The position numbers and the translations under genes are program-made. From Thermoanaerobaculia bacterium (GTDB lineage Bacteria; Acidobacteriota; Thermoanaerobaculia; Multivoradales; SZUA-115), in assembly GCA_044869955.1 (NCBI GenBank), contig JBIOYC010000074.1, positions 9,114-73,113 of the forward strand: a stretch of DNA of 64,000 bases, in the 5' to 3' direction. Under the pieces are notes generated by a model that made no database searches, had not been told where the DNA came from, and saw only the letters and a program-made list of their open reading frames with translations. Of the stretch, positions 5,009 to 53,868 are shown in pieces; positions within the stretch are counted from its first letter, which is position 1, and every line of letters begins with the position of its first letter.

Positions 5009-5017
5009 AGGAAGACC

Positions 5018-6196: not shown

Positions 6197-6227
6197 GCCC
6201 GGCCCGGCGCCTTCTCCCCCACGATCC

Positions 6228-10468: not shown

Positions 10469-11269
10469 GTGCGGACCGGAGCTCGGCCGCTTAGAATCGA
10501 GTACGTGAGCACTCTGCGTTTGTTACCCGCGATCTTGACCTCCCTCGCTCTCCTCGGCGCCTGCGGCCAGGGGGGCTCCTCCTCGAGCTCCGCGGCTTCG
10601 AGCTCCCGGCACGCTCCAGGCGGCGTCTCGGGAGCCCTCGCCGCGGGGGAGGAAGCTGCCGCAGCGGCCAGCGCCGCGGCGCCGGCCCGCACCGGCGCGC
10701 CCGTGGTGCTCTTCCTCGGGGATAGCCTCACGGCCGGCTATGGGCTCTCCGGCGATGACGCCTACCCGGCGGTCGTCGCCCGCCGCCTCGACGAGGAGGG
10801 CATCGCCGCCAAGGTGGTGAACGCCGGCATCTCCGGCGACACCACGGCCGGCGGCCTCGCCCGGCTCGACTGGCTGCTGCGCCAGCAGCCGGCGGTCGTG
10901 GTGGTGGCCCTCGGGGCCAACGACGGGCTGCGCGCCGTCCCCCTCGAAGAAACCGAGCGCAACCTGCGCGAGATCGTCCGCAGGAGCCGCGAGACCGGCG
11001 CCCGTGTGGTGATCGCCGGCATGATGCTGCCGCCCAACTACGGCCCGGCCTACACTCTGGGCTTCCAGGCGATCTTCCCCAAGCTCGCCCGAGAGCTCGA
11101 GGTGGCCCTGATCCCCTTCCTGCTCGAGAAGGTAGCCGCCGAGCCCCAGCTCAACCTCGCCGACGGCATCCACCCCAACGTCGAGGGGCAGAAGCTCGTC
11201 GGCGAGACGGTGCTGCCGTTCGTGGTGCGCGAGCTAGGGAAGGGGTCCGATGTAGGTGGTGCGCCGTGA
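10469..11269 (+). CDS. tesA: SGNH/GDSL arylesterase-thioesterase (TesA-like) lipoprotein
   Basis: [14 protein letters not shown] and DGIHPN blocks of SGNH hydrolases. LLGAC lipobox. It is divergent from ybbA-ybbP as in E. coli. An alternative GTG start lies near 10505. Confidence 0.8.
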
Positions 11270-14215
11270 CACGAAGGCGTCGAAGACCAGGGCGCCGAAG
11301 GTCCCGGGATCGAGACCGTTGACCATTCCCATCAGGGCGGCCTCCACGCTCTGGGCGTCGTTGTCGATCGCCGAAAGGTGGGCGACCAGGCCGCCATCGA
11401 TCCACATCTTGGCGTAGCCGTCCGCAGCACCAGGGGCCGTGGCGGCCCGCCACTCGATCTCGACCGACGTGTCGTCTTCGAAGTTGTTCCAGCCGGAGCT
11501 GAGCCAGGTTCCGGCGTCGTCCATGGCGCGCAGCTGCAACCGGAACGATCCAGGGGTCGAGGCGGGCTCGATCGCCACCCGCGAGATCGCGGCGGCGGCG
11601 GAACGGACGATGAAGAGGTAGAACTGATCGCCGGCCGTCATCGACAGGTAGCCGGGGTCGAGGTAGAAGCGGGCACGATAGCGGGGCTCGGCGACCGGTG
11701 TGTTGTCGCGCACGAAGACGGTGTCGCCGCTTCCTCCGGCTCCTGTGTAGAGAGCCCAAGGTCCTGAAAGGTCGTTTTGGTCTTTCACCGACAGTTGGCC
11801 GGTGCCGGTGACCACGGTCATCGACCAAGCCGAGGTGTCGCCGGAGTCGAGCTCGTCCGAGAAGATGTGGTCGTTGCCACACGTGCCGTCGAGGGGATCG
11901 GTCCTCGGGTAGGCGAGGATCTCAGCGCCGTCTTGAGTGCCGTCGCAGTCGCTGTCGGCGGCCTGGGGATCGGTGCCGATCAGGGTCTCAAAGCCGTCAA
12001 CCACGGTGTCAGCGTCGGCATCGGAGTTGGCATAAACCCAGCCCAGGCAGGCGCGACTGCTGACGACTTCGGTGTAGCCGGCGTACTGGCTCGAGCCCAG
12101 CTCGGAGGCGGGGAAGACCGCCTGGTCGTCCACCGCGGGGTTGCGTCGGCGCAGCAGCGGCACTGTGCCTGCCGGCTGGCAGCTGGTCACCGAGCAGGAG
12201 GTGTCGGCGCCGCAGGTCGGGAAGACGTAGCCCTCGACGCCATCCAGGTAGTAGCCGGCGTTGAAGGCCGCGAGCACCTCCGCGTCGTCGATCGCATAGC
12301 GGTGGTCCCGATGGTTGGGGTTGCCGCCGAAGGGGGCGAACTTGCTCAGCCGGTAGAGCGGGAACAACGCCCCGCCCTCGGGGATCGGGTTCACCTCGGT
12401 CGAGAGCACCCAAGCCGAAGCCTTGGGCGTGCCGTTGGGGCAGGAGCCGGTGGTGCAGCCTGGGAAGCTGCCGTAGCCCGGCACGGCGGGGCCAGCCGAG
12501 GAGTAGGTCACACCGGTGGTGTCCTGGATGGCCGCCACGGCCATCTGGGGAACGGTGGTGTAGAAGAAGTCACCGGCCGTGGAGCTGTAGAGGCTGAAGA
12601 GGGGGGTGGCCCGGTTGGCGAGCACCTGACCGTCCACGGTTCCGAGCAGGGACTCGACAGAGGCATCGGCGTCCGGGATGCCGTAGCCCAGGAACTGGTC
12701 CCAGCTGGCGGCCTGGCTTGCGTGGGTGCGCAGGTCCAGCCGGACCTCTTCGGAGCTGAGCATCGGGTCGATCGAGCGCAGTATAGACGCCAGTCCGGTC
12801 ACGTGCGGCGCCGCCATCGAGGTGCCGGTGCAGCCACCGTAGCCGGTGGGGTTGCTCGGGTAGCCGGCGTCCTGACAGGCGGAGGCTGGGTTCCAGCGTT
12901 GCCCCGTGTAGAAGGTGGAGACCACGTCCTTGGCGGGAGCCGCCAGCTCCTGCTGGGCGCCGAAGTTCGACCCGACGCCGACGCCGTCGTCCCAGAACAC
13001 CCCGGGAAACTCGAGCCCGCCGACCGCGATCACCCGCGAGTCACGTGCCGGGAAGGCGACGCTCGAAGCGTTGTTGCCGGAGGCCGCAGCCATCAGCACC
13101 TGACGGTTGGCGCCGTGGGCTAGAGCGGCGCACACCGGCGCCCACGAGGCGGGCGGGCTGGCGCAGCTCGGATGGTTGCCTAAGCTACCGAAGCTCATGT
13201 TGATCACCTGAGTGCCGTGGTCGATCAGCCAGGTGATGCCCTCGGCGACATCGCTCAGATCCTGGCTCTGGCTGACGTCCGCGCCATACTGCTGGCAGAC
13301 AACGTTGGTGCAGGGAATCAGGTGGGAGATCCGGGCGAACATCAGGCTGGTCCGCCAGGCGGTGCCGGCGACTCCGATCCCGTTGTCGGTGGTAGCCGCC
13401 ACGATTCCCGAGACGTGGGAGCCATGGCCGGCGAAGTCGGTGACACCGAACTGCCCCCCTCCTCCCACGATCTCCTCGAGCTGGAGCTCGTCGACGCAGC
13501 GATCGGGCTGGTTGGGGTTGCCGACGTCGACCGAGAGCCGCCGGCGGAAGTTGCCGTGCTCGAAGAGGTTGGTGCTGCCGGAGCGGTGAAAGGCACGCAG
13601 GTCGGGATGGCCGGTCTCGAAAGTGACCCCGGGGCAGTCCGGAGACTTGGCCTCGATGCCGCTGTCGGGGATTCCGGCGTATCCGTGCCCCCGCGTGTGC
13701 TCCCAGGCCGCCGGGAGGTTCATTAGGTGGAGCCCCCACTGCGGCCCCTGGCTTCCCGGAGACTGGGGGAACAGGGGGTCGTTGGGATCGAGGAAGGGCT
13801 CCACAGAGCCGTCCTCGTCAGCGACGAGCACGTTCGAGTCGGCGGCCAGGGCGTTCTTGGCCGTTTCGAGGTCCGTCGTCGAGGCGTACTCGATGACCAC
13901 GTAGCGCTCGAGCAGGGCGCGCGGGTCCTCGGGATTGGCCAGGAGCCAGGCCAGAAAGTCGCCCTGCGCCCGCTCGGCGAGCAGGGGCTCGGCAGCGACC
14001 GGCGATCCGCTGCCAAGCGCGCCAGGCAGGGGAGTGCGGTTGTTGACGCCGTCGACGACTTGCTGTGGGCTCGGGGCTGCCGGCTCTGGAGCCAGCAGGA
14101 CGACCAGTTCGGGGACTCCGTCGGCCTCGGAGCCGAAGGTGGGTTGAACGAAGCTGCCGAAGGTCAGCAGCGAGGCCAGGGCGAAGCCGAGGCCTTGGGA
14201 TGGCTGGGCTGTCAC
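11234..14215 (-). CDS. Secreted subtilisin-like serine protease (S8) with C-terminal accessory domains
   Basis: Catalytic triad motifs IPDSGIE (Asp), GHGSHVSG (His) and GTSMAAPHVTG (Ser). A GTG start at 14215 is preferred: AAGGAGG sits 5 nt upstream and the encoded N-terminus is a signal peptide. Confidence 0.8.
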   Translation of the reverse strand: MTAQPSQGLGFALASLLTFGSFVQPTFGSEADGVPELVVLLAPEPAAPSPQQVVDGVNNRTPLPGALGSGSPVAAEPLLAERAQGDFLAWLLANPEDPRALLERYVVIEYASTTDLETAKNALAADSNVLVADEDGSVEPFLDPNDPLFPQSPGSQGPQWGLHLMNLPAAWEHTRGHGYAGIPDSGIEAKSPDCPGVTFETGHPDLRAFHRSGSTNLFEHGNFRRRLSVDVGNPNQPDRCVDELQLEEIVGGGGQFGVTDFAGHGSHVSGIVAATTDNGIGVAGTAWRTSLMFARISHLIPCTNVVCQQYGADVSQSQDLSDVAEGITWLIDHGTQVINMSFGSLGNHPSCASPPASWAPVCAALAHGANRQVLMAAASGNNASSVAFPARDSRVIAVGGLEFPGVFWDDGVGVGSNFGAQQELAAPAKDVVSTFYTGQRWNPASACQDAGYPSNPTGYGGCTGTSMAAPHVTGLASILRSIDPMLSSEEVRLDLRTHASQAASWDQFLGYGIPDADASVESLLGTVDGQVLANRATPLFSLYSSTAGDFFYTTVPQMAVAAIQDTTGVTYSSAGPAVPGYGSFPGCTTGSCPNGTPKASAWVLSTEVNPIPEGGALFPLYRLSKFAPFGGNPNHRDHRYAIDDAEVLAAFNAGYYLDGVEGYVFPTCGADTSCSVTSCQPAGTVPLLRRRNPAVDDQAVFPASELGSSQYAGYTEVVSSRACLGWVYANSDADADTVVDGFETLIGTDPQAADSDCDGTQDGAEILAYPRTDPLDGTCGNDHIFSDELDSGDTSAWSMTVVTGTGQLSVKDQNDLSGPWALYTGAGGSGDTVFVRDNTPVAEPRYRARFYLDPGYLSMTAGDQFYLFIVRSAAAAISRVAIEPASTPGSFRLQLRAMDDAGTWLSSGWNNFEDDTSVEIEWRAATAPGAADGYAKMWIDGGLVAHLSAIDNDAQSVEAALMGMVNGLDPGTFGALVFDAFVSRRTTYIGPLP

Positions 14216-14471
14216 GATTCCTCCTTCGCGGGCTACCGGGCCCGCTCTCATCCGGTATGGCGGGAGGTCTTCGCCAGAGCTCTCAACCGAAGCGTTCCCG
14301 TTGGGCAGCGACGGCACGATTGAGTTGGGGCGGATCGATAATCAGGAACTACATTCTGACGAGATAAGACATCCCCGGGTGTCACGGTTCACTCTTCGGC
14401 CTCACTCTCTTGTGCAGAGCAACCGCTCGAACAGCATTCGCGTCCCCCAGTGGAACGGAAAGGAGCCAGGC

Positions 14472-15054: not shown

Positions 15055-15681
15055 ATGAAGAAGACTCGCCTCTTCACCCTCGCCGCCTTCGCCCTGGTCT
15101 GCCTCCTGGTGGCCGGCAGCCTCTTCGCCTACGTCCTTCTCTCGCCGCGCCGCACCTGGGACGCGGACCCCAACGTCATCGTCGACAGCCGCGGCAACAC
15201 CTCGGTCACCGACGGGGCCGGCGGTCGCAACTACGTGCGCAGCGCGATCGTCTCGACGGCGGCCTGGAACGGTGCGGGCTCGGGCACCGTGGTCAACGCC
15301 ACGATCGGCTCGGTCTCGGCCTTCTCGTTGGGCGACGGCACGCCGATGCTCAACCTGCGTGACCCCACCGGGGCCTGCAACGGCTCTTGCCTGGCGGCCA
15401 CCTTCACCGGCTATTACAGCCGGCGTTCGAACGGCACCTACCGCATCTACGACGCCGACATCGTCACCAACCCGTCGCTCAACTTCGCCTCCGCGGGCGA
15501 GGCCTGCTCCGGCAGCGAGTACCGCATCGAGGGAGTGATGGTGCACGAGGTGGGGCACCTGCTGGGCCTGGGTCACACCAGCGTCTCCGGCGCCACCATG
15601 TTCCCTTCCGTCTCCGCCTGCAACAACAACCCGGCCTCGACCGAGGCCGACGACGAAGCAGGTATCAACGACCTGTATTGA
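15055..15681 (+). CDS. Small secreted zinc metalloprotease, metzincin (HEVGHLLGLGH plus ATMFP Met-turn; M10/M7-like)
   Basis: The HExxHxxGxxH zinc motif and Met-turn are read directly. Signal/TM N-terminus. SD AAGGAA. Confidence 0.75.
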   Translation: MKKTRLFTLAAFALVCLLVAGSLFAYVLLSPRRTWDADPNVIVDSRGNTSVTDGAGGRNYVRSAIVSTAAWNGAGSGTVVNATIGSVSAFSLGDGTPMLNLRDPTGACNGSCLAATFTGYYSRRSNGTYRIYDADIVTNPSLNFASAGEACSGSEYRIEGVMVHEVGHLLGLGHTSVSGATMFPSVSACNNNPASTEADDEAGINDLY

Positions 15682-19441: not shown

Positions 19442-20775
19442 TGTCGATCGAAGGCTCGCTCGAGTACTTTCAGCTGCCGGACATCCTGCAGGTGGTCGCC
19501 CAACAGGGCAAAACCGGCATCCTCACCGTCCAGGGCGAAGCGGACATCATCGCCATCTCCTTCGAGCACGGCAAGATCGTCGGTGCCGATGCCCTGAACC
19601 AGACCCTCGAGGAGGCGCTGGGAGAGGTGCTCGCCAGCCAGGGCCTGGTGGCGCCCTCCGCCTTCGCCGCCGTGGCTGCCGAGCAACGGACCCGCGAGGG
19701 CCGCCTGATCGACCTGCTGGTCCAGCGGGGCGTGATCCAGCGGGACCAGCTCCTCGGTGCCCTGCGCCGCCACACCATGCGCCTGCTCTCCGAGCTGCTC
19801 CACTGGCGCAAGGGCGAGTTCAAGTTCTACAGCGGGGAGGAGGTCTCCTACGAGGAGGGCTTCCAGCCGATCTCGGTGGACGAGCTGCTGTTGAGATCCG
19901 TCGAGGAGGCGGCGGGGGAGGGCCATCCCACCATTCCAGACTCCCGCTCGATCTACGAGAGCGTGCCCCCGGACCGGCCGATTCGCCTGCGCCGGGAGGA
20001 GGAGGGACCGGCCCTGCCGGACAGCCGGGCGTTCTGGCTGACCGAGGGGGAGAAGTCCGTCTACGACCACCTGGCGGTGGGCCACAACGTCGCGGCTCTG
20101 GTGCGCAAGAGCGGGCTCGACGAGTACAAGGTGCGCTACAACTTGCACCGGCTGCTCGAGCTGGGCCTGGCGCGTCGGCGGATGGGGTTGCCCGGAGCCT
20201 CCGCCACGAGTCGCACCGCGCCGGCCGCCGAACAGGCTCCTGCCCCGGCCCGGCTGGCACCGCCCGCCGCCCAGCCGGCGCCCGTCCTGACCCTGCCGCG
20301 ACTGCCGGAGACGCCGGCGGCGGTGCGGCCCCGCTACGGGCTGCTCGCCGCCGCGCTGGGAGTGGCGGCGGGCTTGGCCCTCCTGGTTTTGCTGGCCCGC
20401 AACCCGCTCCGGATGGGGCTGCCGTTTCCCTGGCAGGCGACTGAGCGGGAAGCCCTCTTCGACCAGGTCGCCGCCGCGTCCTCGGCGAAGATCGACGATG
20501 CGGTCAAGGCTTACCACCTGCTGGAGGGTCGCTTCCCGGACCGCCTCGAGAACCTGATCAGCCTCGGGCTCCTGCACCGTCAGGACCTCGAGGATCCCCT
20601 GGGCCGTCCCTTCGTCTGGGAGGTCGAGGGCGACGCCTACCAGCTCTCGACCGCCGAGGGCTCTCCCTACTCCTTCACCGTCCGCGAGGCGGTGACCGGC
20701 CATTTCCTGCTCGACCCCGAGCTGGCGAGCGGCCCCGGAGCCAGCGAAGCCCAGCCCCTGATCCTGCTCGATTGA
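19441..20775 (+). CDS. DUF4388 (PATAN-like) domain protein with a C-terminal TM segment
   Basis: The N-terminal LEYFQLPDILQVVAQQGKTGILTV is the DUF4388 signature. The ATG at 19441 is preferred over the track's upstream in-frame start because of the translational coupling. Confidence 0.7.
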   Translation: MSIEGSLEYFQLPDILQVVAQQGKTGILTVQGEADIIAISFEHGKIVGADALNQTLEEALGEVLASQGLVAPSAFAAVAAEQRTREGRLIDLLVQRGVIQRDQLLGALRRHTMRLLSELLHWRKGEFKFYSGEEVSYEEGFQPISVDELLLRSVEEAAGEGHPTIPDSRSIYESVPPDRPIRLRREEEGPALPDSRAFWLTEGEKSVYDHLAVGHNVAALVRKSGLDEYKVRYNLHRLLELGLARRRMGLPGASATSRTAPAAEQAPAPARLAPPAAQPAPVLTLPRLPETPAAVRPRYGLLAAALGVAAGLALLVLLARNPLRMGLPFPWQATEREALFDQVAAASSAKIDDAVKAYHLLEGRFPDRLENLISLGLLHRQDLEDPLGRPFVWEVEGDAYQLSTAEGSPYSFTVREAVTGHFLLDPELASGPGASEAQPLILLD

Positions 20776-20827
20776 AGCCGCTGGAATAAATCTTAGCGTC
20801 TCGTTGTCATATCTCCTGAGGGCGAAC

Positions 20828-20858
20828 CTTGACAGGGATCGACTAAGGTTCGTACACT
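20828..20858 (+). promoter_or_regulatory. Candidate dnaK promoter (TTGACA-N18-TACACT) overlapping a weak HAIR-like dyad (CTTGACA-N7-ACTAAGG)
   Basis: Hexamers read directly about 35 nt upstream of the dnaK GTG. The HAIR resemblance is imperfect. Confidence 0.3.
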
Positions 20859-20891
20859 TCGGGACCTAACGGGAAGAAATGGAGAACAGCG

Positions 20892-22793
<1,902 letters not shown>

Positions 22794-22805
22794 GGGCGAT
22801 CCGCC

Positions 22806-23198
22806 ATGAGCCAGTCCGGGAAGACCGGCCGCAAGCCCGGCAAGAAGTACGTGATGATCAGCGTGGTGGCGGAGCAGCTCGCCATCCACCCGCAGACCAT
22901 CCGTCTCTATGAGCGGGAAGGGCTGATCTCCCCGACCCGCAGCGCGGGCAATACGCGGCTCTACGACGAGGAAGCGATCCGTCGTCTCGAGACCATCCTC
23001 ACCTTGACCCGCGACATGGGGATCAACCTCGCGGGGGTCGAGGTGATCCTCGGCCTCAAGGACCGTATCGAGGAGCTGCGCGCCGAGGTCGAGCGCCTGC
23101 GCGAGGATCTGCGCCAGTTCACCAACGACGAGCGTGCAGGCGTCGACCGTCGTTTCGCCCTGGTCCAGATCAAGAGCGGCCTGCCGGTGAAAAGGTAG
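22806..23198 (+). CDS. hspR: MerR-family heat-shock repressor HspR
   Basis: MerR HTH (MISVVAEQLAIHPQTIRLYEREGL) followed by a coiled coil. It sits directly downstream of dnaK. Confidence 0.8.
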   Translation: MSQSGKTGRKPGKKYVMISVVAEQLAIHPQTIRLYEREGLISPTRSAGNTRLYDEEAIRRLETILTLTRDMGINLAGVEVILGLKDRIEELRAEVERLREDLRQFTNDERAGVDRRFALVQIKSGLPVKR

Positions 23199-23256
23199 CC
23201 AAGAGGGCCGGCCAACGTGTCGGCCCTCCCCGTCGCCATTTGCTACCATCGCCCGG

Positions 23257-27900: not shown

Positions 27901-28659
27901 CTACCGCCGATCCTTCAGGAAGGGCAGTCTCGCCCGGGTCTCGGCCACCAAGGTCGGGTCGATCTCGGCGAGCAGCAGGGTCTCGCCCCGGGAGGCCGAG
28001 GCCAGCGTCTCGCCCATCGGGTCGACGATCCGGCTGTCCCCGACGTAGACCAGCCGCCCTCCCTCGCCGACCCTGTTGACCGCCACCACGTAGGCCTGAT
28101 TCTCGATCGCCCGCGCGGTGGCGAGGCCCACCCAGTGGTGGCGCCGGGTCTCCGGCCAGTTGGCCACCACCAGGTAGGCGTCGGTCCCCGGGGCCACGGC
28201 CCAGAATTCATCGGCGAAGCGCAGGTCGTAGCAGACGAAGAGGGAGAAGCGCACGCCTTCGATCGTCACCGTCACCCGCTCGCGGCCGGCCTCGAAGTGC
28301 TCCTGCTCGCCGGCGTAGGTGAAGGGATGGATCTTGGCGTAGCGGTGGAGCTCCCCGCCTGGCCCCGCAACCAGCAGGGTGTTGGCCGGCCGCTCGGCGC
28401 CGGGTGAGCGCTCGGGGAGGGAGCCGGCGAGCCAGCAGCCCAGGCGCCTGGCCTCGCGGACCAGGAACTCGGTGGAGGGTCCCCCGGGAGGCTCGGCGGT
28501 GCGCTCGGTCGCCATCGAGAAGCCGCAGGCGAACATCTCGGGCAGGGCGATCAGGCGGGCCCCGGTCGCGGCGGCGCGCTCGAGCCAGGGAACGAGCCGT
28601 GCGAAGTTGCCCGGCGGGTCTTCCCAAAGGATATCGGTCTGGAGGGCGGCGACGCGCAT
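27901..28659 (-). CDS. Carbon-nitrogen hydrolase (nitrilase superfamily, omega-amidase-like)
   Basis: The E-K-C triad context is ALPEMF, YAKIHPF and FVCYDLRF. Confidence 0.8.
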   Translation of the reverse strand: MRVAALQTDILWEDPPGNFARLVPWLERAAATGARLIALPEMFACGFSMATERTAEPPGGPSTEFLVREARRLGCWLAGSLPERSPGAERPANTLLVAGPGGELHRYAKIHPFTYAGEQEHFEAGRERVTVTIEGVRFSLFVCYDLRFADEFWAVAPGTDAYLVVANWPETRRHHWVGLATARAIENQAYVVAVNRVGEGGRLVYVGDSRIVDPMGETLASASRGETLLLAEIDPTLVAETRARLPFLKDRR

Positions 28660-28791
28660 GGCGGGAGGATGGCCGATCGGTGGGCCGGAAGCAAGACTGC
28701 GGGACCTCGTCTCGCAAATTGGCGACTTCGCCGTCTTGACTACAAGGTTCGAGAGAACTTAAAATCGCGCATCACTAGAGATGGTATACCC

Positions 28792-29559
28792 ATGAACGAG
28801 AGACACTGCTTGCGGCCCATGAGTTGGATCCTGGTCGGATTTCTGACGGGCAGCGCTGTGCTCGCCGAGGTTCCCGACCGAATCGATTCCCCTCTCAAAT
28901 CACCCTCCAACGTCCTTTGGCTTTCAGAGGAGCTTGCCTTCAGTCCTTCCGGTGAGCTTCGCAGCGAGCTGTTCTCGAGTTCCGAGCTTTCCATGCTCCG
29001 CAACGAGGTTGAGGGCCTTCGTCGCGCCAGAGCACGCGCAGTGGACGGCAGTGCCGAGACCGCGTGTCCTCTGATCCAAGTGGGCGATCGCGACTTTGCG
29101 GCCGATCGGCCCACCCTGGCGCAAGTGTTCGAGGAAGCTAAGCTCGTGGTCCTGGGGGAGCTAGCCGCGGTCGAGCAAGGTGTGTTCTACGGCCAGTTCG
29201 TGACCCTCTACGAGCTCCGGATCGAGACCGTCGCCAAGGCCCCGGCCAGTTGGAGCGCGCCCGAAACTCTCCTGTTCGTGGGTGTCCGCTTCGACCGAGT
29301 GGTCGATGGTACGCGCGTCTGTCTGGCCGGATCGCGCTTCCCTCATGAGCCGACACTAGGTCGTCGGGTCCTGATTCTCGCTCGAGCGATCCCGGTCGAG
29401 AGCCCGGTCGTTTTGAACCCGCTCGAGGACGAGCTCTACTTCGAGATCGAGGGCGGAGTCGCCTCCTTGCCATGGGCCAAGGCGACGGGCCTGCCGGCTG
29501 GGGTGTCCTGGGCCGAAGTAGAGAGGCAGCTGTTCGCTGTACAGGACAAGCGGCCATGA
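28792..29559 (+). CDS. Secreted hypothetical protein (P2), partner of the downstream snapalysin-like metzincin
   Basis: Signal peptide. Its stop overlaps the next start (ATGA at 29556-29559). It shows faint similarity to P1 (AKLVVLGELAAV against ADVVIEGEVLQV). Confidence 0.55.
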   Translation: MNERHCLRPMSWILVGFLTGSAVLAEVPDRIDSPLKSPSNVLWLSEELAFSPSGELRSELFSSSELSMLRNEVEGLRRARARAVDGSAETACPLIQVGDRDFAADRPTLAQVFEEAKLVVLGELAAVEQGVFYGQFVTLYELRIETVAKAPASWSAPETLLFVGVRFDRVVDGTRVCLAGSRFPHEPTLGRRVLILARAIPVESPVVLNPLEDELYFEIEGGVASLPWAKATGLPAGVSWAEVERQLFAVQDKRP

Positions 29560-30203
29560 AGACTACCCGTCCCGGCGGGCTGGGCCGGTCGAGGTGGGCT
29601 GCTCTGTTGCTTTGCTTCTTGGCAGCAGCGACCGGGACGGATGCCAGAGGAGACAGCTGTGCCAACAGCTATTCGGAAATCTCGGCCAGTTCTGCCATCG
29701 ATACCATCCGACTCAACGGAATCTACGGCGACCGAGCCCCCTGCATCAGCTGTCTGTCGACCGCGGCGAGCGCGTGGTCCAGTGCCTGTGGGAGCAGCAG
29801 TCTCCCCAACCTGACCACCAGCGGGGCTGCCGACATGGTCGTCCCGGTCTATTTCCTGCTTGGTCAGAATCCAGGAACGGTCCCGGGCTGCAGCGGCACC
29901 AAGTGCGCGTGTACGCGGCTGACTTTCTCCGGGGGTCAGATTGCCACCGCACAGATCTACATCTGGGAAGCCACCGGTGGTGGGCAGAACTGCACCGCGC
30001 AACAGACGGCAGTTCTCACTCACGAGATCGGGCATCTTCTCGGTCTGGAGGACCCCTCGCCGGGGACCTGCACGACGAGGATCATGGGCAACGTCACTGG
30101 TGCCATCGCTGCCGCCGACTGCAACGAAGTGGATGGCAACTTCTACATGAGCTGGGAGGGAGGAGTGCCGAATGACCACGACTGCGTCTGGCGCGAATAC
30201 TGA
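29556..30203 (+). CDS. Small secreted Cys-rich zinc metalloprotease, snapalysin-like metzincin (HEIGHLLGLED plus RIMGN Met-turn)
   Basis: HExxHxxGxxD with Asp as the third ligand, as in the M7 snapalysin family. Signal peptide. Eleven Cys. Confidence 0.65.
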   Translation: MKTTRPGGLGRSRWAALLLCFLAAATGTDARGDSCANSYSEISASSAIDTIRLNGIYGDRAPCISCLSTAASAWSSACGSSSLPNLTTSGAADMVVPVYFLLGQNPGTVPGCSGTKCACTRLTFSGGQIATAQIYIWEATGGGQNCTAQQTAVLTHEIGHLLGLEDPSPGTCTTRIMGNVTGAIAAADCNEVDGNFYMSWEGGVPNDHDCVWREY

Positions 30204-30873
30204 GCAACTCCTGCGCCGAGCCCGCACCCGCGTCAGCTGGTGCTTGCTCCTGGTGGTCCCCGGCTTCGTCGTCCCCGCGATGGCCGATCACGCCTGCACC
30301 AGCCCTTTGATTCTCAATCTGGACGATAACGGGCGGATCGACACGACGGGCGAAGAGCACTGGGTCGACTTCGACATCGATGGCGATGGCGAGCTCGATC
30401 GCATCGCTTGGACCAGCTTCGAAGCCGAAGATGCTCTCCTTTGGCTGGACCTCAACGACAACCGCCTGGCGGATCACGGCGGCGAGCTCTTCGGCGACTC
30501 CACCCGCCTTCCATCGGGTGAGTTGGCCCGCAATGGCTTTGAGGCGTTGGCGGTTTACGATCGGCCGGAGCAGGGCGGCGATGGGGATGGGCGGATCACC
30601 GCCCTCGACCGGATCTGGCCCCGCCTGCGCCTGTGGGCCGACTTCAACCACGATGCCGTCTCGCAGCCGGAAGAGATCCACCGTCTCACGCCTTCGGCAG
30701 TTCTAGCCATCGACCTAGCCTACGAGAAGGCGCAGGTGCTCGACGGTCACGGCAACCTCCACGCCCTGCGGGGGACCTTCGTGAGACGCGTAAGAGAGGC
30801 AGGCTTCGAGAGGATCCAGCAGGAGCTGGTCGAGGACGTTTCCTTCCTCTCGGAGGAGTTGCACCAACCTTGA
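30172..30873 (+). CDS. Secreted hypothetical protein with EF-hand/dockerin-like DxDxDG calcium-binding motifs
   Basis: DFDIDGDGELD, DLNDNRLAD, GGDGDGRITALD. Signal peptide. The start is uncertain; the ATG at 30172 overlaps the upstream gene by 32 bp. Confidence 0.5.
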   Translation: MTTTASGANTEQLLRRARTRVSWCLLLVVPGFVVPAMADHACTSPLILNLDDNGRIDTTGEEHWVDFDIDGDGELDRIAWTSFEAEDALLWLDLNDNRLADHGGELFGDSTRLPSGELARNGFEALAVYDRPEQGGDGDGRITALDRIWPRLRLWADFNHDAVSQPEEIHRLTPSAVLAIDLAYEKAQVLDGHGNLHALRGTFVRRVREAGFERIQQELVEDVSFLSEELHQP

Positions 30874-30894
30874 CCGTTGGCGAGCCCGTGCTCC

Positions 30895-32412
30895 TCAGTC
30901 GTCGGCCGCCGAGGCGTCCTTGATCACGAAGCGGGCCGAGAGGCGCGCCACCTCGGTGGCGAGCCCGGCGAGCTCCACCGAGCGCAGCACTTCGGCGAAG
31001 TCCTTGTAGGCGGCGGGGGCCTCGTCCCGGGGATAGTTGCGGCCGTTGAAGAGGATGTCGCGCTCCTCGAAGGAACGGTCGATCTCCCCTTGGTCGAGCT
31101 CACGGATCGCCCGCTTGCGGCCCAAGGCCCTCCCGGCGCCGTGGTTGACGCTAAAGCAGGAGAGCGCGGCCCCGGGCTCGGCCACCATCACCGAGGAGCC
31201 GGCCTGGGGGTTGCCCGGCAGCAGGATCGGGTGGCCGGTCTGCGCGAACGGAGTGCCGGCGAGCTCGTGGTGCCCGGCTGGGAAGGCGCGGGTGGCGCCC
31301 TTGCGGTGGACCCACATCCGTCGCCCCTCGACCACCTCGAGCCGGGCGATGTTGTGGCTGATGAAGTAGACCAAGGAGGCCTGGACGCCCGGCACGACCT
31401 CCTGGAAGGCCTCGAGCACCAGCGCATTGATCAAGAGGTGGTTGAGCGTGGCGAAGTTGGCGCCGAGAGCCATGTCGTCGAGGTAGTCATCGGCCTCGGC
31501 CGTGCCCAGCGGCGCATAGACCAGCTCGCGATCCCCGCCCGGCAGGGGGATGCTCCAGGTGGCGAACTTCTGCTGCAGAGTCTTGAACTGGCGCGAGGCG
31601 AGCAGGTGCCCGAAGCCCCGCGAGCCGCAGTGGGAGAGGAAGGCCGCCCGACCGTCGGCGAGCCCGAAGGACTCCGCCACCCAGCGGGCGCGGTCGCTGC
31701 CGGCCACCTCGACTACCTCACACTCGCCGAAGTGGTTGCCACCGCCGTAGGAGCCGAGCTGCTGGACCTTCTCGCCGAACTTGCCGAAGGCTGGGTCAGT
31801 ACCCAGCAGGCGCTCGAGACGCACCGCCAGGGCCTCCTGGGTGCCATCGTGGCCGCGGTGGAAGGCGTCCTCGCAGCGCTCGGCCCATTCGGGTGGGATG
31901 CCGAGAGCCTCGCAGACCGCGTCCGAGGCTCCCTCCACCACCAGCCGGCGGCCGAGATCCTCCGCCACCCGCCGTGCCTTCCTCACCGAGCGCTGGCCCT
32001 TGCCGGCGCCGGTGGGCACCCGCTCGCCGATGGCCTCGATCAAGGCCCGACGTACCTTGCGGTCCACCACCGCCTCGGCGGGCAGGTCGAGCTGAAGCAG
32101 GCTCATCGAGCACTTGATGTCGACGCCGACCGGACCGGGGTAGATGTGGCTGGGCGAGGCGACCACGCAGCCGACCGGCGCCCCGTAGCCGACGTGAGCG
32201 TCCGGGTTGAGCACGACCCGGGCGACGCCCGGGGACATCCGGGTGTTCATAGCCTGCTGAAGGCAGCCGGCGTCGAAAGTTCGGCGGATGGCCTCGGTGC
32301 CGATCACGGTGATCGGCGGCAGCGAGCCGCCGGCGACCGGCAAGAGGGCGGTAGCCTCGCCGGTCGGCACCAGCTCAAAGCCGGTGGCTTCAGAAGGGTT
32401 GGCAGAGGTCAT
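30895..32412 (-). CDS. rtcB: RNA-splicing ligase RtcB
   Basis: Collinear with the RtcB family (GVDIKCSM, GGGNHF, HNIA, VNHGAGR metal/GMP-His blocks). The upstream part of the 964-aa track ORF is rejected. Confidence 0.85.
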   Translation of the reverse strand: MTSANPSEATGFELVPTGEATALLPVAGGSLPPITVIGTEAIRRTFDAGCLQQAMNTRMSPGVARVVLNPDAHVGYGAPVGCVVASPSHIYPGPVGVDIKCSMSLLQLDLPAEAVVDRKVRRALIEAIGERVPTGAGKGQRSVRKARRVAEDLGRRLVVEGASDAVCEALGIPPEWAERCEDAFHRGHDGTQEALAVRLERLLGTDPAFGKFGEKVQQLGSYGGGNHFGECEVVEVAGSDRARWVAESFGLADGRAAFLSHCGSRGFGHLLASRQFKTLQQKFATWSIPLPGGDRELVYAPLGTAEADDYLDDMALGANFATLNHLLINALVLEAFQEVVPGVQASLVYFISHNIARLEVVEGRRMWVHRKGATRAFPAGHHELAGTPFAQTGHPILLPGNPQAGSSVMVAEPGAALSCFSVNHGAGRALGRKRAIRELDQGEIDRSFEERDILFNGRNYPRDEAPAAYKDFAEVLRSVELAGLATEVARLSARFVIKDASAADD

Positions 32413-32426
32413 GGGCGGGCGGGAGG

Positions 32427-33596
32427 TTACCCGAAAGCTCGCCTCGCCCGCCAGGCGAGCAGCCGTTCCACCGCCTGGTCGATCGTGTCCTCGTCCTTGC
32501 AAAAGGCGAAGCGCAGCCAGGGGCGGCCGTGCTCTTTGTTGAGGTAGAAGGGGCTCGCCGGGATCGCCGCCACGCCGGCTTCCTCGGGCAGGAGGCGCGA
32601 CAGCTCGAGGTCGTCGTCGAAGCCCAGGGGGCGGATGTCGGCGAGCACGAAGTAGGTGCCTTCCGGTGCCTGGACCCCGAAGCCGGACTCGGCGAGGCCG
32701 CGGCAGAGACGGTCGCGCCGGCTCCGGTAGCGGGCCAGGTAGTCCTCGAAGTAGTCGTCGCCGGCCGCGAGGGCCCTGGCCATGGCCACCTGGAACGGCG
32801 TGGCCTGGCAGAAGGTCACGAACTGGTGGGCTGCTCGCAGGGCCTGCGTCAGCTCTGGGGGGGCGCAGCTCCAGCCGATCTTCCAGCCGGTCAGGCTGAA
32901 GGTCTTGCCCGCCGAGGAGATGGTCACCGTGCGCTCGCGCATCCCGGGCAGGGAGGCGAGGGGCAGGTGCTCCCCCTCGAAGACCAGATGCTCGTAGACC
33001 TCGTCCGAGACGGCGATCAGGTCGTGCCGGCGGCATAGGTCTGCTACCGCTTCCAGCTCGGCGCGGGTGTGCACCCGACCGGTGGGGTTCTGCGGTGTGT
33101 TGAGCAGGATCAGCCGGGTGCGGGGCGTGATCGTCGCCGCCAGCTCGGCGGGGTCGAAGCGGAAGCCCGGCTCGCGGAGGGTGACGGCGCGCACGGTGGC
33201 GCCGGCCATCTCGGCGCCGGCAAGGTAGGAGTCGTAGAAGGGCTCGAAGAGCACCACCTCGTCCCCGGGATCGCAGAAGGCCTGGAAGACGCAGAAGAGG
33301 GCCTCGGTGGCGCCGGCGTAGACGGTGATCTCCCCCTCGGGGTCGAGGTCCTGGCCATAGAAGCGCCTGCGCTGCGCGGAGACCGCCTCGACCAGCTCGG
33401 GCAGCCCGAAGCTGCGGCTGTACTGGTTCCGCCCCGCCCGGATGGCTTCGACGGCGGCTTCCTTGACGAAGTCCGGGCCATCGAAGTTGGGGGCCCCCTG
33501 GCCGAGGTTGATGGCGCCGAAGCGTGTGGCCAGCTGGTTGACGGCGGAGAAGATCGAGGTGCCGAAGCCGGAGACGCGTCGGGCGGCTCGCCTCAC
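32427..33596 (-). CDS. PLP-dependent aminotransferase, class I/II (YbdL/methionine aminotransferase-like)
   Basis: FGTSIFS, INLGQGAPNFDGP, and the PLP-Lys context SSAGKTFSLTGWKIGW. A GTG start at 33596 gives 389 aa. Confidence 0.8.
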   Translation of the reverse strand: MRRAARRVSGFGTSIFSAVNQLATRFGAINLGQGAPNFDGPDFVKEAAVEAIRAGRNQYSRSFGLPELVEAVSAQRRRFYGQDLDPEGEITVYAGATEALFCVFQAFCDPGDEVVLFEPFYDSYLAGAEMAGATVRAVTLREPGFRFDPAELAATITPRTRLILLNTPQNPTGRVHTRAELEAVADLCRRHDLIAVSDEVYEHLVFEGEHLPLASLPGMRERTVTISSAGKTFSLTGWKIGWSCAPPELTQALRAAHQFVTFCQATPFQVAMARALAAGDDYFEDYLARYRSRRDRLCRGLAESGFGVQAPEGTYFVLADIRPLGFDDDLELSRLLPEEAGVAAIPASPFYLNKEHGRPWLRFAFCKDEDTIDQAVERLLAWRARRAFG

Positions 33597-50891: not shown

Positions 50892-51794
50892 ATGGGTCTG
50901 CTCTCCGGTTCGCTCAGCGTCGCCCGCTTCACCGTCGCCCATCGCGAGGCCCCGGACTTCGACGTCGCGGCCTTTCGGGAGATCGCCCCCGGCTCGGAGG
51001 TGCGGGAGTCGATCGGCTTCGTGCCGTTCGAGATCGGGGCGCCCTGGGAGGTCGGGGCGCAGCGCTGGGCCTTCCGGGTGCGGGTCGACCGCATCCGCCC
51101 GGACGCCACCGCCGTGCGCGAGCGCTGGAAGCAGCTGCTGACGACCGAGCTGGAGATCTCGGGGGCGCGCTTTCTCGGTGCCAGGAAGCGACGGGAGCTC
51201 AAGATCCTCGCCCAGGAGGAGCTCGCCTTCGCCACCTCCCCCCGCAGCAAGATCCTCGAGGCCGTGATCGACCAGGACGTGCTCTTCATCGGCTCGTCGG
51301 CCCGCTCGCAGCTGGGGCTGGTGACCACGCTGCTGCGGCGGATCGGCGTCGAATCCGCCTTCAAGGCGCCCTGGGTGGATCGCGGGTTTCCGGACCGGGC
51401 GGGCGAGCTCCTCGCTTCCCGGGAGCCTTCGGACTCCCCGTGGGGAACCGAGTTTCTGAAGGCCCTGGTGGGCGATGCGGAGGTGGCCGTCGAGCCGGAG
51501 GCCGGGCGGGCGAAGCTGGCCTTCGCCGGCACGCGCATCGCCCTCGCCGGGGAGATCCTGCCCGACCTCGTGGCCTACCTCGAGCGTGGTGCGGAGCCGG
51601 TCGCACTGCGGCTGGCGACGGGCGACAGCTCCTTCACCCTGGACGGCCCCTCCTTCCGCCTCAGCGGGGCGAAGCTGCTGCCGGTTCAGGGCGGGCATTG
51701 GACCGAGTTGCTCGACGCTCGCCTGGAGCAAGTCATGGAGCTCTACGACCTGCTGGAGCGGAAGTTCGGCGAGCTGGTGAAGGGTGCCGATTGA
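50892..51794 (+). CDS. rdgC: RdgC-like recombination-associated protein
   Basis: About 300 aa, with an N-terminal pattern resembling RdgC (GFVPFEIG against GWVPPMG). The assignment rests on recalled similarity. Confidence 0.45.
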   Translation: MGLLSGSLSVARFTVAHREAPDFDVAAFREIAPGSEVRESIGFVPFEIGAPWEVGAQRWAFRVRVDRIRPDATAVRERWKQLLTTELEISGARFLGARKRRELKILAQEELAFATSPRSKILEAVIDQDVLFIGSSARSQLGLVTTLLRRIGVESAFKAPWVDRGFPDRAGELLASREPSDSPWGTEFLKALVGDAEVAVEPEAGRAKLAFAGTRIALAGEILPDLVAYLERGAEPVALRLATGDSSFTLDGPSFRLSGAKLLPVQGGHWTELLDARLEQVMELYDLLERKFGELVKGAD

Positions 51795-51856
51795 CAGACT
51801 CGGCCAGCTCTGTAAGCTCTGAGCGATCCCAGGGTCGACCCGGAAGGGAGGCCGCG

Positions 51857-52561
51857 GTGGCCGAGCAGCCCGAGCTGGACAGGTCCTTCGAGCAGGTTCC
51901 TCTCACCCGCAACGAGTACATCACGGCGATCGTCCACTACTACCGTGGCGAACGCAGCCGTGCCGACGCCTGGCGAGCCCGGCTCGATCCCACCACCAAC
52001 TGGGCGGTGGCCACCACCGGAGCGATGCTCTCCTTCGCCTTCTCGAGCCCCGAGCACTCGCACGTGGCGCTGCTGCTCGCCTTCTTCTTGGTGTCGATCT
52101 TCCTCGGTTTCGAGGCCCGGCGGTTCCGCTACTTCGACGTCTGGCGGGCGCGGGTGCGGATGATCGAGGAGAATTTCTTCATCCCGATCATCCGGCGCAA
52201 GCTTGAGAGCCCGCGGCATGACTGGCGCGAGTCGATGGCCCGGGACCTCGATCACCCGACCTTCAAGATCAGCACCCTCGAGGCGGTGGCGATCCGGCTG
52301 CGCTTCAACTACATCTGGATCTTCCTGGCAATCCTGGTCTCATGGCTCGCCAAGCTGTCCGTGCATCCGACCAAGGCCACCGCGACCGGCGAGATGGTCG
52401 AGCGCATGGCGGTCGGGCCTCTGCCTGGCTGGCTGGTGCTGGTGATCGTCAGCGCCTTCTGGCTCGGACTCAGCGGGCTCGCGCTGTGGGGGCGGGGCCG
52501 GGGGCGCGGCGGTGACGAGGTGCACGGTCTCGAGAAGGAGATGGATCACTGGAAGACGTGA
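51857..52561 (+). CDS. DUF2270 family membrane protein
   Basis: GTG start with GGGAGG 6 nt upstream. Three TM helices. The upstream 380 aa of the track ORF are rejected. Confidence 0.55.
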   Translation: MAEQPELDRSFEQVPLTRNEYITAIVHYYRGERSRADAWRARLDPTTNWAVATTGAMLSFAFSSPEHSHVALLLAFFLVSIFLGFEARRFRYFDVWRARVRMIEENFFIPIIRRKLESPRHDWRESMARDLDHPTFKISTLEAVAIRLRFNYIWIFLAILVSWLAKLSVHPTKATATGEMVERMAVGPLPGWLVLVIVSAFWLGLSGLALWGRGRGRGGDEVHGLEKEMDHWKT

Positions 52562-52574
52562 ACGCGAGCTCTGC

Positions 52575-52596
52575 CAAGGTGCCAGCCGAATTGCGG
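52575..52596 (+). repeat. Exact 22-nt repeat CAAGGTGCCAGCCGAATTGCGG, copy 1
   Basis: Identical to 57273-57294 in the same orientation. A 2-mismatch copy lies inside the MFS CDS at 49181-49202. Confidence 0.6.
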
Positions 52597-52658
52597 TTCA
52601 CGGCCGACGAGTGGCGAGGTCCAGGGCATCGGCGGCGGTTTTACGTCTACATCTAGTG

Positions 52659-53576
52659 ATGGGTCGTCCACTTCGCTTCATTCCACCGGGCTCGCTGGTC
52701 GCGGTCACGACGCGGACTCTCCAGGGAAGGCGTCTGCTTCGACCGTCCGAGCAGCTCAACGACATCATCAGAGGGTGTCTCGGGCGAGCTCAGCGGCGGT
52801 ACAGCATGCGTGTGCACGGCTGCACGTTCTTGTCCAACCACTTCCACCTCCTGCTCAGCCCGGACGACCCTTACCAGCTCGCCGCCTTCATGAACTATTT
52901 CAATTCCAAGCTGGCGAGGGAGGTCTCCCGGCTCCATGGGTGGACCGAGCGTATCTGGGGGCACCGATATCACGCCATTCCGGTCAGCGACGAAGAGTCT
53001 GCGCAGCTGGAGCAACTGGAGTACCTGCTGGCCCAGGGTTGCAAGGAGGATCTGGTCGAACGGCCCGAGGAGTGGCCGGGAGTGCACAGCGCTGAGGCTC
53101 TATGTGAGGGCACCGCAATGCGCGGCCACTGGCACGACCGCACCGCCGAGGCCCTTGCGCGCCATCGCGGCAAGCGGTGTGAGGGCTTGAGCCTTGTTCA
53201 CCCTGAGCAGGTCGTGTTCTCCCCTCTACCTTGCTGGGCGCACCTGCCACCGGACCAATACCGCCAGCGCATTCGAGGGATCCTGCAGGAGATCACTTCG
53301 CGGTATGCGGCTGAGAGGGCTCGGCGAGGGGTCAAGTGTCTGGGTGCCGAGCGAGTCCGGAGCCAGGACCCTCATACCCGCCCGGTTTCCATGGCAAGGC
53401 GGCCGCCGCCGTGGATCCACGCCGCAAGCGTTGCGATCAGGATCGCTTTCCGCCAGGCGTATCGCGCCTTCGTCATAGCCTTCCGGGAAGCCGCCGAGCG
53501 CCTGAGAACTGGGCGGCTGCCCGTCTGCTTTCCGCCCTGGAGCTTTCCTCCTCCCTGGCCCCGGCCCACGGGGTAG
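52659..53576 (+). mobile_element. IS200/IS605-like HUH (Y1) transposase-family protein with an extended C-terminus (RAYT-like)
   Basis: The HUH motif SNHFHLLL and a Tyr region (HRYHAIPV). No terminal inverted repeats were seen, and it appears single-copy in the window. Confidence 0.6.
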
Positions 53577-53868
53577 CACACTCGCCGAACCACCGTTCGT
53601 GATGTCTAGGACGACCTTGAGCCCGGGCGAGGTGGGTCTTTCGACGCGTCTGGACGACCTCCGGGCGTTCCCCGCTTGCACTCGCCGCTTGCTCCTGACG
53701 GGTTGACGGTCTGCATCGAGGTGTTGGAAGGAGCCTCGAGAGGCAATTCTCTGTGCAGAGACCAACTGCTCTCCGCCGAGTGCTCCCTCGTCGGAAAGAC
53801 GGCTGGCACCTTTTTCTCCGCCCTGGAGGAGCCGGGGGCTGGCGAGACCCCCGGGCCGAGGGTGTCTT

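Follow-up and report, generated by a model that had tools for sequence, protein, structure and literature searches.

The self-processing module (SPM) is known from the RTX proteins FrpC and ApxIVA, in which the binding of Ca2+ folds the module (PMC7078468). In FrpC, the Asp414-Pro415 bond breaks via an aspartic anhydride that can acylate a lysine, a reaction termed 'clip-and-link' (PMC7078468), and the D414A substitution abolishes both cleavage and coupling (PMC7846742). The 2020 structure paper described the SPM as confined to a subset of RTX proteins (PMC7078468). Upstream of frpC lies a gene encoding FrpD, which binds an N-terminal fragment of FrpC with sub-nanomolar affinity (PMC7078468, PMC5233953). 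Here we analyse a stretch of 64,000 nucleotides (nt; hereafter 'the window') from a Thermoanaerobaculia bacterium of the phylum Acidobacteriota (assembly GCA_044869955.1, contig JBIOYC010000074.1, positions 9,114 to 73,113), in which three adjacent genes at 28.7 to 30.9 kb encode proteins with predicted signal peptides (Table 1). The first gene encodes P2, the second M2, a Cys-rich mini-metzincin, and the third a protein that a preliminary description, made from the sequence alone, had regarded as a calcium-binding protein of the dockerin or EF-hand type. Our alignments instead place the third protein with the SPMs, as a stand-alone member with a Ser-Pro in place of the Asp-Pro junction.

A word-indexed protein search with the third protein returned 76 relatives, all of which carry the precomputed Pfam annotation PF26745, 'SPM'. 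With phmmer, the window protein matches PDB entry 6SJW with an E-value of 1.4e-23, residues 45-205 aligning to chain residues 1-155 and Pro45 falling on Pro415, and a family profile matches 6SJW/6SJX with an E-value of 1e-44, in an alignment that likewise starts at Pro415. In an AlphaFold2 (AF2) model of a relative in which the module is fused to a metzincin (P0024), the SPM part has a predicted local distance difference test score (pLDDT) above 90, and Foldseek pairs it with 6sjw (E-value 7e-16, template-modelling (TM) score 0.79). No EF-hand or dockerin family of Pfam matches the window protein at an E-value of 0.1 or below.

When the alignment to 6SJW is mapped on the published sites, all four Ca2+ sites can be assigned: site 1 to N49/D51/N53/G54 together with D87, site 2 to D93/N95/N97/E105, site 3 to D130...D137/D139/D146, with a 5-residue insertion relative to FrpC, and site 4 to D157/N159/D161/E168. 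The three calcium loops of the preliminary description are all present, and two of them, DLNDNRLAD and GGDGDGRITALD, are sites 2 and 3, but they belong to the SPM fold and not to a dockerin or EF-hand protein, and two further sites (N49/D51/N53/G54 and D157/N159/D161/E168) had been overlooked. The Trp pair W80/W155 (FrpC W451/W519) and the 'port' residues L106, G108 and G122 (FrpC L475, G477 and G491) are invariant in 41 sequences. Also invariant is P45, the counterpart of FrpC Pro415, which is the first residue of the module and the leaving group. The equivalent of FrpC D478, a ligand of the transient fifth Ca2+ site, is variable (D, T or N) in this family. An invariant D222, after which hydrophobic residues follow, probably corresponds to FrpC D579-L582, which is our own reading and not a tool-made alignment. 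As judged from these alignments, the third protein is an SPM homologue that has kept the Ca2+ sites, the Trp pair and the Pro, and in which Ser replaces the catalytic Asp.

The replacement of Asp, here by Ser44, is characteristic of the relatives as well. At the position preceding the Pro (position -1), 85 domains from soil metagenomes have Ser in 65 cases, Thr in 15, Asp in 2, Gly in 2 and Ala in 1, and 104 database proteins have Ser in 85, Thr in 13, Cys in 3, Glu in 2 and Asp in 1. Ser or Thr accordingly accounts for about 94% of some 189 homologues (80/85 and 98/104), and a residue with a nucleophilic side chain (Ser, Thr, Cys, Asp or Glu) for about 98%. The module lies at the extreme end of its proteins, with a median of 3 residues left before the C-terminus among the 104 database proteins. 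In stand-alone SPMs the Pro still follows a short leader that has been conserved, HPC-x-S, and the cargo in the wider clade includes other metzincin-like domains, NHL repeats, Gly-rich collagen-like repeats and Cys-rich regions. With at least 512 matches among soil metagenomes and upwards of 100 protein clusters, these homologies point to a large, undescribed clade of non-RTX, Sec-type, Ser/Thr-Pro SPMs that are C-terminal or stand-alone, are mostly coupled to small metzincins, and retain every structural hallmark of the SPM apart from the catalytic Asp. Our literature search for PF26745 and for non-RTX or acidobacterial SPMs found no paper describing an SPM outside RTX proteins.

A few Sec-type proteins have the canonical Asp-Pro before a C-terminal SPM (L089, L158, L171 and P0065). 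The one at positions 2749-3912 of L089, for example, consists of a signal peptide, a metzincin (HEVGHAIGFQD), a Pro-rich linker, the D/P junction and the SPM. Since these four keep Asp-Pro, modules competent for clip-and-link seem to exist outside RTX proteins.

The link between SPM and metzincin is most direct in the relatives of M2. Word-indexed protein searches with M2 and with P2 matched just the query proteins themselves, but an exhaustive HMMER search with M2 yielded 114 cluster representatives, about half of them around 200 amino acids (aa) long and about half around 390 aa. The longer relatives are fusions in which a metzincin is followed by a linker, [ST]-P and an SPM. In the split arrangement of the window, cysteines lie at the two ends that the fusions join. 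The mature SPM protein has a single Cys, C42, in the context DHAC-T-S44/P45-LILNLDDNG (the slash marks the junction), three residues before the junction Pro. Mature M2 has an odd number of Cys (11), with C210 near its C-terminus, and 27 of 30 M2 homologues end in [HG]-P-C-x(2-5). A Cys within 8 residues upstream of the Pro occurs in 92 of the 104 database proteins, most commonly at -3. Counting the Cys from the Met-turn to the junction gives an odd total in 25 of 28 fused proteins, so that, once the conserved C189 is set aside, linker Cys come in pairs (0, 2, 4 or 6). We infer that two linker Cys would pair with each other in the fusions, and that their counterparts in split pairs would form an interchain disulfide between M2 C210 and SPM C42. 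Speaking against this proposal, its basis is counting and motif conservation only, 5 of the 28 fusions are near-identical members of a cluster, and the modelled fusion P0024 has no linker Cys, so its model gives no geometry.

As for what happens at the junction, we put the chance that it is processed in window-type SPMs at about even. If the Ser/Thr-Pro modules are active, Ca2+-dependent folding might strain the C-x-[ST]-P segment, as it does the junction in FrpC, so that the hydroxyl or the nearby thiol acts as the nucleophile, via an ester, thioester or lactone, and Sec-exported enzymes of soil bacteria would thereby be released or covalently attached to a target. We offer this chemistry as a tentative and, on balance, unlikely proposal; were it true, it would be a second, hitherto undescribed chemistry of Ca2+-triggered self-processing, in which a split metzincin is handed over through the M2 C210-SPM C42 disulfide. 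It must be set against this that we know of no precedent for self-processing at a Ser/Thr-Pro junction, that Gly or Ala occupies position -1 in 3 of the approximately 189 domains, and that the D478 equivalent varies.

A serious competitor, which we rate at somewhat under an even chance, is that the SPM-like domain no longer self-processes and instead serves the metzincin permanently, in a Ca2+-dependent way, for folding, stabilisation or attachment. The [ST]-Pro pair would then be structural, for example as a strand cap, and the disulfide would just join two chains. Such a role agrees with the absence here of the Asp that is essential in FrpC, with the Gly and Ala exceptions and the variable D478 equivalent, and with a position at the extreme C-terminus, as is seen for many non-catalytic C-terminal domains. 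It is harder to reconcile with an invariant Pro preceded by nucleophilic residues in about 98% of the domains, with the invariance of the residues by which FrpC surrounds its scissile bond (W451, L475, G477 and G491), with an HPC-x-S leader that stand-alone SPMs have kept though a folded domain needs none, and with the occurrence of Asp-Pro versions in the same Sec-type architecture. Canonical clip-and-link, in which Ca2+ would trigger cleavage before Pro45 via an aspartic anhydride and subsequent cross-linking to target lysines, is scarcely credible for the window protein in spite of its full-length homology to the FrpC SPM with Ca2+ sites, Trp pair and Pro, because the anhydride route is excluded by the presence of Ser44 at the position where D414A kills the FrpC reaction, and because just about 6 residues precede the Pro once the signal peptide is removed.

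The SPM gene is part of a compact unit. The P2 and M2 genes overlap by 4 nt (ATGA), the M2 and SPM genes overlap by 32 nt, and the SPM stop codon is 21 nt from that of the convergent rtcB gene. A promoter-like site precedes P2 and is the sole one in positions 28400-31100, where shuffled sequences lead one to expect 0.2. Read by eye, the N-termini of P2, M2 and the SPM protein each have a basic n-region, a hydrophobic h-region and a cleavage site with small residues. The earlier view of three tightly packed or overlapping genes, all with signal peptides, is thereby upheld, and we infer from the gene arrangement that P2, M2 and SPM are probably co-transcribed as one self-promoted, translationally coupled operon.

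The same three genes occur together elsewhere. Reading the DNA at loci of SPM homologues revealed P2-like and M2-like genes directly upstream, in the same order. Three hidden Markov models (HMMs) applied to 84 loci found the order P2-M2-SPM in L004, L005, L008, L038, L085-L088, L090, L091, L095 and L096, and the order was likewise seen in L164-L167, reached from M2 homologues, which supplied three further loci with the full triad, such that it is fixed in 15 of the 15 loci with enough sequence. Across 13 loci, neither a conserved fourth gene nor a mobility gene accompanies the cassette. By homology, then, P2-M2-SPM is a unit that recurs in unrelated contexts in soil Acidobacteriota-type genomes. 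Viral contigs contained four SPM-bearing proteins and no P2-M2-SPM triad, which leaves a phage vector for the cassette unsupported. A plasmid search with the SPM mostly found RTX-type 'calcium-binding proteins' with 30-40% identity. Separately, a 'hypothetical protein' of the Pseudomonas plasmid NZ_CP135972.1 (2365-2943) aligns to SPM residues 2-203 with 33% identity, the N-terminal region included, and may be another stand-alone SPM outside Acidobacteriota.

M2 has the zinc motif HEIGHLLGLED at residues 156-166 and the Met-turn RIMG at 175-178, lacks a propeptide, and contains 12 Cys, 11 of them past the signal peptide. Six Cys, W74, H156, E157 and H160 are invariant in 30 M2 homologues, and G163 and M177 (both conserved in at least 90%) and C210 are nearly so. 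The third-ligand position, D166 in M2, is Asp in most of the 30 homologues, Asn in 9 and His in 1. Searches against curated models reached no threshold: Peptidase_M43, M7, M10 and Reprolysin gave 15-17 bits, PF02031 gave 17.1 bits (cut-off 25) and NF033628 gave 21.5 bits (cut-off 300), these last two matches covering just some 40 residues around the zinc motif. An M2 family profile does match adamalysins, matrix metalloproteinases (MMPs) and snapalysin, at E-values of 1e-5 to 1e-4. In the AF2 model of the P0024 fusion, the metzincin part matches karilysin, MMPs and snapalysin in Foldseek (probability at least 0.97, TM score about 0.5); its pLDDT of 40-85, a moderate confidence, tells against leaning heavily on these matches. 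M2 is, from its motifs and profile matches, a metzincin that fits no curated family model available here. The preliminary description was right about the metzincin identity, the Asp as third ligand and the 11 Cys of the mature protein, while its label 'snapalysin-like' holds for the Asp ligand only, the M7 models being far under threshold.

The window has a second exported protein next to a small metzincin. In this 'Cassette 1', P1 (14472-15032) is followed by M1 (15055-15681; HEVGHLLGLGH), a weak match to the myxosortase-dependent metalloprotease family NF041905 (E-value 1.4e-10, below the cut-off). The P1-M1 pair adjoins a minus-strand open reading frame (ORF) of 1,027 aa (11234-14317 region) that reads like a subtilase (GTSMAAPHVTG), and no SPM gene lies alongside it.

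P2 relatives emerged only through reading the DNA beside SPM homologues. In eleven such homologues, W43, C92, G130, C177 and P187 are invariant, and the predicted mature N-terminus is conserved as x-[VI]-P-x-x-[IL]. P2 has no match in Pfam or NCBIfam, and none at an E-value of 10 or below among PDB sequences, FrpD and known inhibitors included; a single-sequence AF2 model (pLDDT 32) was unusable. A kinship between P1 and P2, suggested by a TIMP-like OB pattern seen by eye, was rejected as evidence (hhalign E-value 0.022, probability 2%). Matches of the P2 HMM are confined to the neighbourhood of M2-type metzincins, whether fused or split, and do not occur beside other SPM-bearing proteins. By analogy with known gene pairs of protease and inhibitor, P2 could be an inhibitor or chaperone of the propeptide-less M2, a suggestion that we hold with a little less than even confidence; what counts against it is that no relative of P2 with a known function could be detected, so that the suggestion draws on operon logic and analogy. 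It is less probable, indeed unlikely, that P2 serves the protease as a receptor or anchor in the manner of FrpD. The gene order (an upstream gene, then cargo, then SPM) is the same and the sizes are similar (P2 has 255 aa), but the P2 signal peptide ends in GSAVLA/EVPD, with no Cys and hence no lipobox, no PDB chain, FrpD included, is similar in sequence, and P2 tracks M2-type metzincins rather than SPM domains at large.

To place the cassette in its genomic setting, we compared the window with a sister genome, the Thermoanaerobaculia metagenome-assembled genome (MAG) GCA_036274895.1, the closest genome to hand, which was found as the representative of the 90%-identity cluster holding the CN-hydrolase protein of the window. 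Its contig locus, L007, is collinear with the window at 85-87% nucleotide identity over more than 20 kb. In blastn, L007 59-9944 corresponds to window 42306-32423, and L007 9980-15364 to window 28680-23236, so that a 36-nt spacer in the sister takes the place of window positions 28681-32422, with junctions at about 28680 and 32423. A scan of species-representative genomes with the aminotransferase protein gave 75 loci. At least 17 of these have the CN-hydrolase gene directly behind the aminotransferase gene, 3-90 nt apart, the hosts being five Thermoanaerobaculia, other Acidobacteriota, Nannocystis species and Polyangia (that is, Acidobacteriota and Myxococcota). Neither rtcB nor any cassette gene lies between the adjacent genes in these 17 or more loci, and rtcB was not found at any of the 75 aminotransferase loci. 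Because the sister and at least 17 other loci keep the pair adjacent, the adjacency is ancestral and the window lineage gained 3,742 nt. Judged by this synteny, positions 28681-32422 are a lineage-specific 3.74-kb insertion that splits an ancestral aminotransferase-to-CN-hydrolase pair. The same arrangement as in the window is present in three further assemblies of the same organism.

The insertion includes rtcB, which begins 14 nt past the aminotransferase stop codon and falls within the segment absent from the sister. The preliminary description had let a foreign island end at a native-looking rtcB, a boundary that the sister genome moves. The composition of rtcB is native-like (G+C (GC) content at the third codon position, GC3, 0.918; tetranucleotide distance 0.22, where the median is 0.197), and the segment is therefore composite or the product of two events. 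This difference in composition between rtcB and the cassette, which could have arrived jointly or in two events, complicates a simple insertion, as do three negative results: the segment, which contains P2, M2, SPM and rtcB, has no integrase, transposase or other mobility gene, a tRNA scan of the window found none, and the insertion ends bear no clean target duplication. A search for flanking repeats and for tRNA or integrase remnants, which had been proposed earlier, came up with only an imperfect 17-nt direct repeat. We rejected this repeat as a target duplication, since just 14 of its 17 positions are identical, it overlaps the Shine-Dalgarno regions of the CN-hydrolase gene and rtcB, and it is partly native sequence present in L007.

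It is quite improbable that the cassette is instead ancestral at this locus and was lost from the sister, with the low GC content reflecting codon usage and not foreign origin. The cassette is indeed GC-poor in every host, vertical inheritance included, and composition alone is no proof of transfer. At the same time, at least 17 loci in two phyla share the adjacent state of the sister, a precise 3.7-kb deletion restoring adjacency would be required, and the flanking genes are not common to the cassette loci of different hosts.

Three observations concern the surroundings of the insertion. First, it separates the CN-hydrolase gene (27901-28659, minus strand) from the aminotransferase gene that precedes it in at least 17 genomes; no promoter-like site was found on the minus strand within 28400-31100. 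Second, the sister has an extra segment of its own of about 3.8 kb, L007 15365-19202, where the window has 39 nt (23197-23236). This segment encodes a bAvd protein and a TIR/NACHT/FGE-sulfatase protein and looks like a target module of a diversity-generating retroelement. Third, another Thermoanaerobaculia MAG (L038) has a P2/M2/SPM cassette at 3926-6764, just 2.2 kb upstream of the aminotransferase-CN-hydrolase pair in that genome, on the opposite side and the opposite strand compared with the window and preceded by a HigB/HigA-like toxin-antitoxin pair. The M2 and SPM reading frames of L038 look like a frameshifted fusion. The placement of this cassette may reflect a regional hotspot or chance.

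Table 1. Features of the insertion and its flanks, in coordinates of the window.
Feature	Position	Strand	Description and evidence
CN-hydrolase gene, native left flank	27901..28659	-	Pfam CN_hydrolase 4.5e-42; ~93% aa identity to the sister copy
Direct repeat, left copy (GGCGGGAGGATGGCCGA)	28660..28676	.	Imperfect, 17 nt, 14/17 identical; at one insertion boundary
Inserted segment	28681..32422 (3,742 nt)	.	P2, M2, SPM and rtcB; blastn against sister locus L007, junction alignments
Sigma-70-like promoter (predicted), TTGACT-18 nt-TAAAAT	28736..28765	+	10/12 matches; upstream of P2, within the inserted DNA
P2, 255 aa	28792..29559	+	ORF; exported by predicted signal peptide; predicted mature N-terminus E-[VI]-P-x-[RI]-I; family without known relative
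M2, 215 aa, Cys-rich mini-metzincin	29556..30203	+	HEIGHLLGLED 156-166, Met-turn RIM177G, 'DH.C' motif at the C-terminus (C210)
Stand-alone SPM-like protein, 233 aa	30172..30873	+	Own Shine-Dalgarno sequence (GGGAGGAG), signal peptide, PF26745 homology
rtcB, 505 aa	30895..32412	-	Pfam RtcB 1.6e-99; inside the inserted segment
Direct repeat, right copy (GGCGGGAGGTTACCCGA)	32418-32434	.	At the other insertion boundary
Class I/II aminotransferase gene, native right flank	32427..33596	-	Pfam Aminotran_1_2 2.4e-66; 92% aa identity in the sister

The low GC content that first drew attention to this region is real. The window as a whole has a GC content of 69.8%. The 2,200-nt stretch from 28701 has a GC content of 0.631, against a mean of 0.698 (standard deviation 0.022; z = -3.1), which is the lowest among 1,236 sliding windows of 2,200 nt each, and it is also the top tetranucleotide outlier (L1 distance 0.32; median 0.197). 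In 300-nt windows, the GC content falls from 0.72-0.75 at 28.2-28.6 kb to 0.57-0.65 across 28.65-30.9 kb and returns to 0.68-0.73 past 30.9 kb. The GC3 values of P2, M2 and the SPM gene are 0.73, 0.745 and 0.795, compared with 0.90, 0.93 and 0.92 in the neighbouring trypsin-like, CN-hydrolase and RtcB genes, while GC content at the first and second codon positions is ordinary in all three. The drop at 28.7-30.9 kb thus sits almost wholly at codon position 3, and the AT-richer codon usage reported earlier for this stretch was confirmed by sliding-window GC, GC3 and tetranucleotide composition alike. The next-lowest 2.2-kb minima of the window are at 51701-53900 (0.655) and 20751-22950 (0.657), and an ORF at 52446-53576 has a GC3 of just 0.74.

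Low GC content turns out to be a standing property of the cassette. We compared cassette and flanks in the window and in L004, L005, L008, L038, L085, L088, L091, L095, L096 and L164-L166, and in all 13 of these hosts with usable flanks the cassette lies 2.5-14 GC points below its flanks (for example, 0.623/0.716, 0.555/0.696, 0.587/0.700, 0.587/0.691 and 0.58/0.698 for cassette/flank; 0.637/0.697 in the window). Two of them, L088 and L091, are collinear through flanks and cassette at about 90% nucleotide identity and therefore inherited the cassette vertically, and the contrast is 10-11 points in both. Since the contrast is present in 13 of 13 hosts, this vertical pair included, low GC content is not in itself a sign of recent arrival; synteny, and not composition alone, establishes transfer. 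The suggestion of horizontal acquisition in the preliminary description accordingly stands insofar as the segment is foreign to the locus, by the gap in the sister and the 17 or more adjacent pairs, but low GC is weaker evidence for it than was claimed. Close relatives with the same genes at the same locus, which would have spoken against acquisition, did not turn up, the sister being without the segment. For annotation, the lesson is twofold: a low-GC islet can be a standing trait of a gene cassette, and a 'native-looking' neighbour such as rtcB can belong to the same insertion.

With these results, the original picture of three independent secreted proteins sharing an island that ends at native rtcB becomes very improbable. 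The signal peptides, the Asp as third ligand and the DxDxDG loops on which it was built are all present. Yet protease and Ca2+-binding domain are fused in many relatives, the triad is complete in 15 of 15 loci, the third protein matches the SPM strongly and no EF-hand or dockerin family, the M7 models stay far under threshold, and rtcB lies inside the insertion.

Taken as a whole, the explanation that we favour, and consider reasonably probable, is an inserted triad operon whose mini-metzincin and SPM-like module work as a unit. P2, M2 and the SPM protein would be exported by the Sec route, and a disulfide between M2 C210 and SPM C42 would rebuild the fused layout, cargo-(S-S)-C-x-S/P-SPM. By homology, binding of extracytoplasmic Ca2+ at the four conserved sites would fold the SPM-like domain. 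With the C-x-[ST]-P junction seated in the conserved port, processing by a hydroxyl or hydrolytic route might then release M2, or else the domain would remain a permanent Ca2+-dependent partner. P2 might keep the propeptide-less M2 latent or aid its folding.

The FrpC SPM is one of the rare modules in which Ca2+ triggers self-cleavage coupled to covalent ligation, and engineered forms of it serve as a self-excising tag and as 'NeissLock'. Cleavage by the domains of the new clade, should it occur, would amount to new protein chemistry and would offer protein engineering a new toolbox; without it, a self-processing module would have been turned into a Ca2+-dependent accessory domain.

Several known systems resemble parts of this locus. 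As a small genomic islet, the segment is typical in being a compositional outlier with accessory secreted-protein genes that is missing from a sister with kept flanks and occurs in varied contexts across hosts. It differs in being composite, with a GC-poor cassette and native-like rtcB, in having no integrase, transposase, tRNA or clean repeats, and in that the window-type cassette stays GC-poor even when vertically inherited. M2 resembles snapalysin (M7) and karilysin (M10) as a small, single-domain secreted metzincin with a Met-turn and shares with snapalysin the Asp ligand of HExxHxxGxxD, and in each case a partner gene lies beside the protease (sermetstatin with snapalysin, potempin with karilysin, P2 with M2). 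Unlike them, M2 has seven conserved Cys, no propeptide, a C-terminal HPC motif and a variable third ligand. The position of P2 upstream of M2, with the ATGA overlap and in 15 of 15 loci, likewise recalls the protease-inhibitor gene pairs sermetstatin-snapalysin, potempin-karilysin and Inh-serralysin, except that P2 resembles no known inhibitor family.

With respect to the junction, C-terminal autoprocessing via Ser, Thr or Cys nucleophiles is established for Hedgehog/Hint, SEA, GPS and Nup98, and autocleavage at Asn-Pro or Asp-Pro for FlhB (NPTH) and vWD (GDPH). These share with the window-type SPMs a C-terminal domain behind a cargo and a strained junction with a nucleophilic side chain, from which the cargo could be released or transferred, but kinship in fold or sequence is not expected.

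The closest counterpart is the SPM of FrpC. Homology extends over the whole module of about 160-180 residues, from a start at the same Pro through four EF-hand-like sites, the Trp pair and the port residues, and in both systems a gene upstream encodes a partner (frpD for frpC, P2 here). Apart from Ser in place of the catalytic Asp, several differences concern the setting. The window protein has a predicted Sec signal peptide and no RTX (GGxGxD) repeats, whereas FrpC uses type I secretion, and the module is a separate 233-aa protein, or the extreme C-terminus in relatives, whereas in FrpC it is an internal domain of a protein of more than 1,000 residues. Here the cargo is a small metzincin, the junction has a conserved Cys three residues upstream, and Ca2+ site 3 has its 5-residue insertion. 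Finally, the hosts of FrpC are proteobacterial pathogens, whereas the window clade belongs to soil Acidobacteriota-type bacteria.

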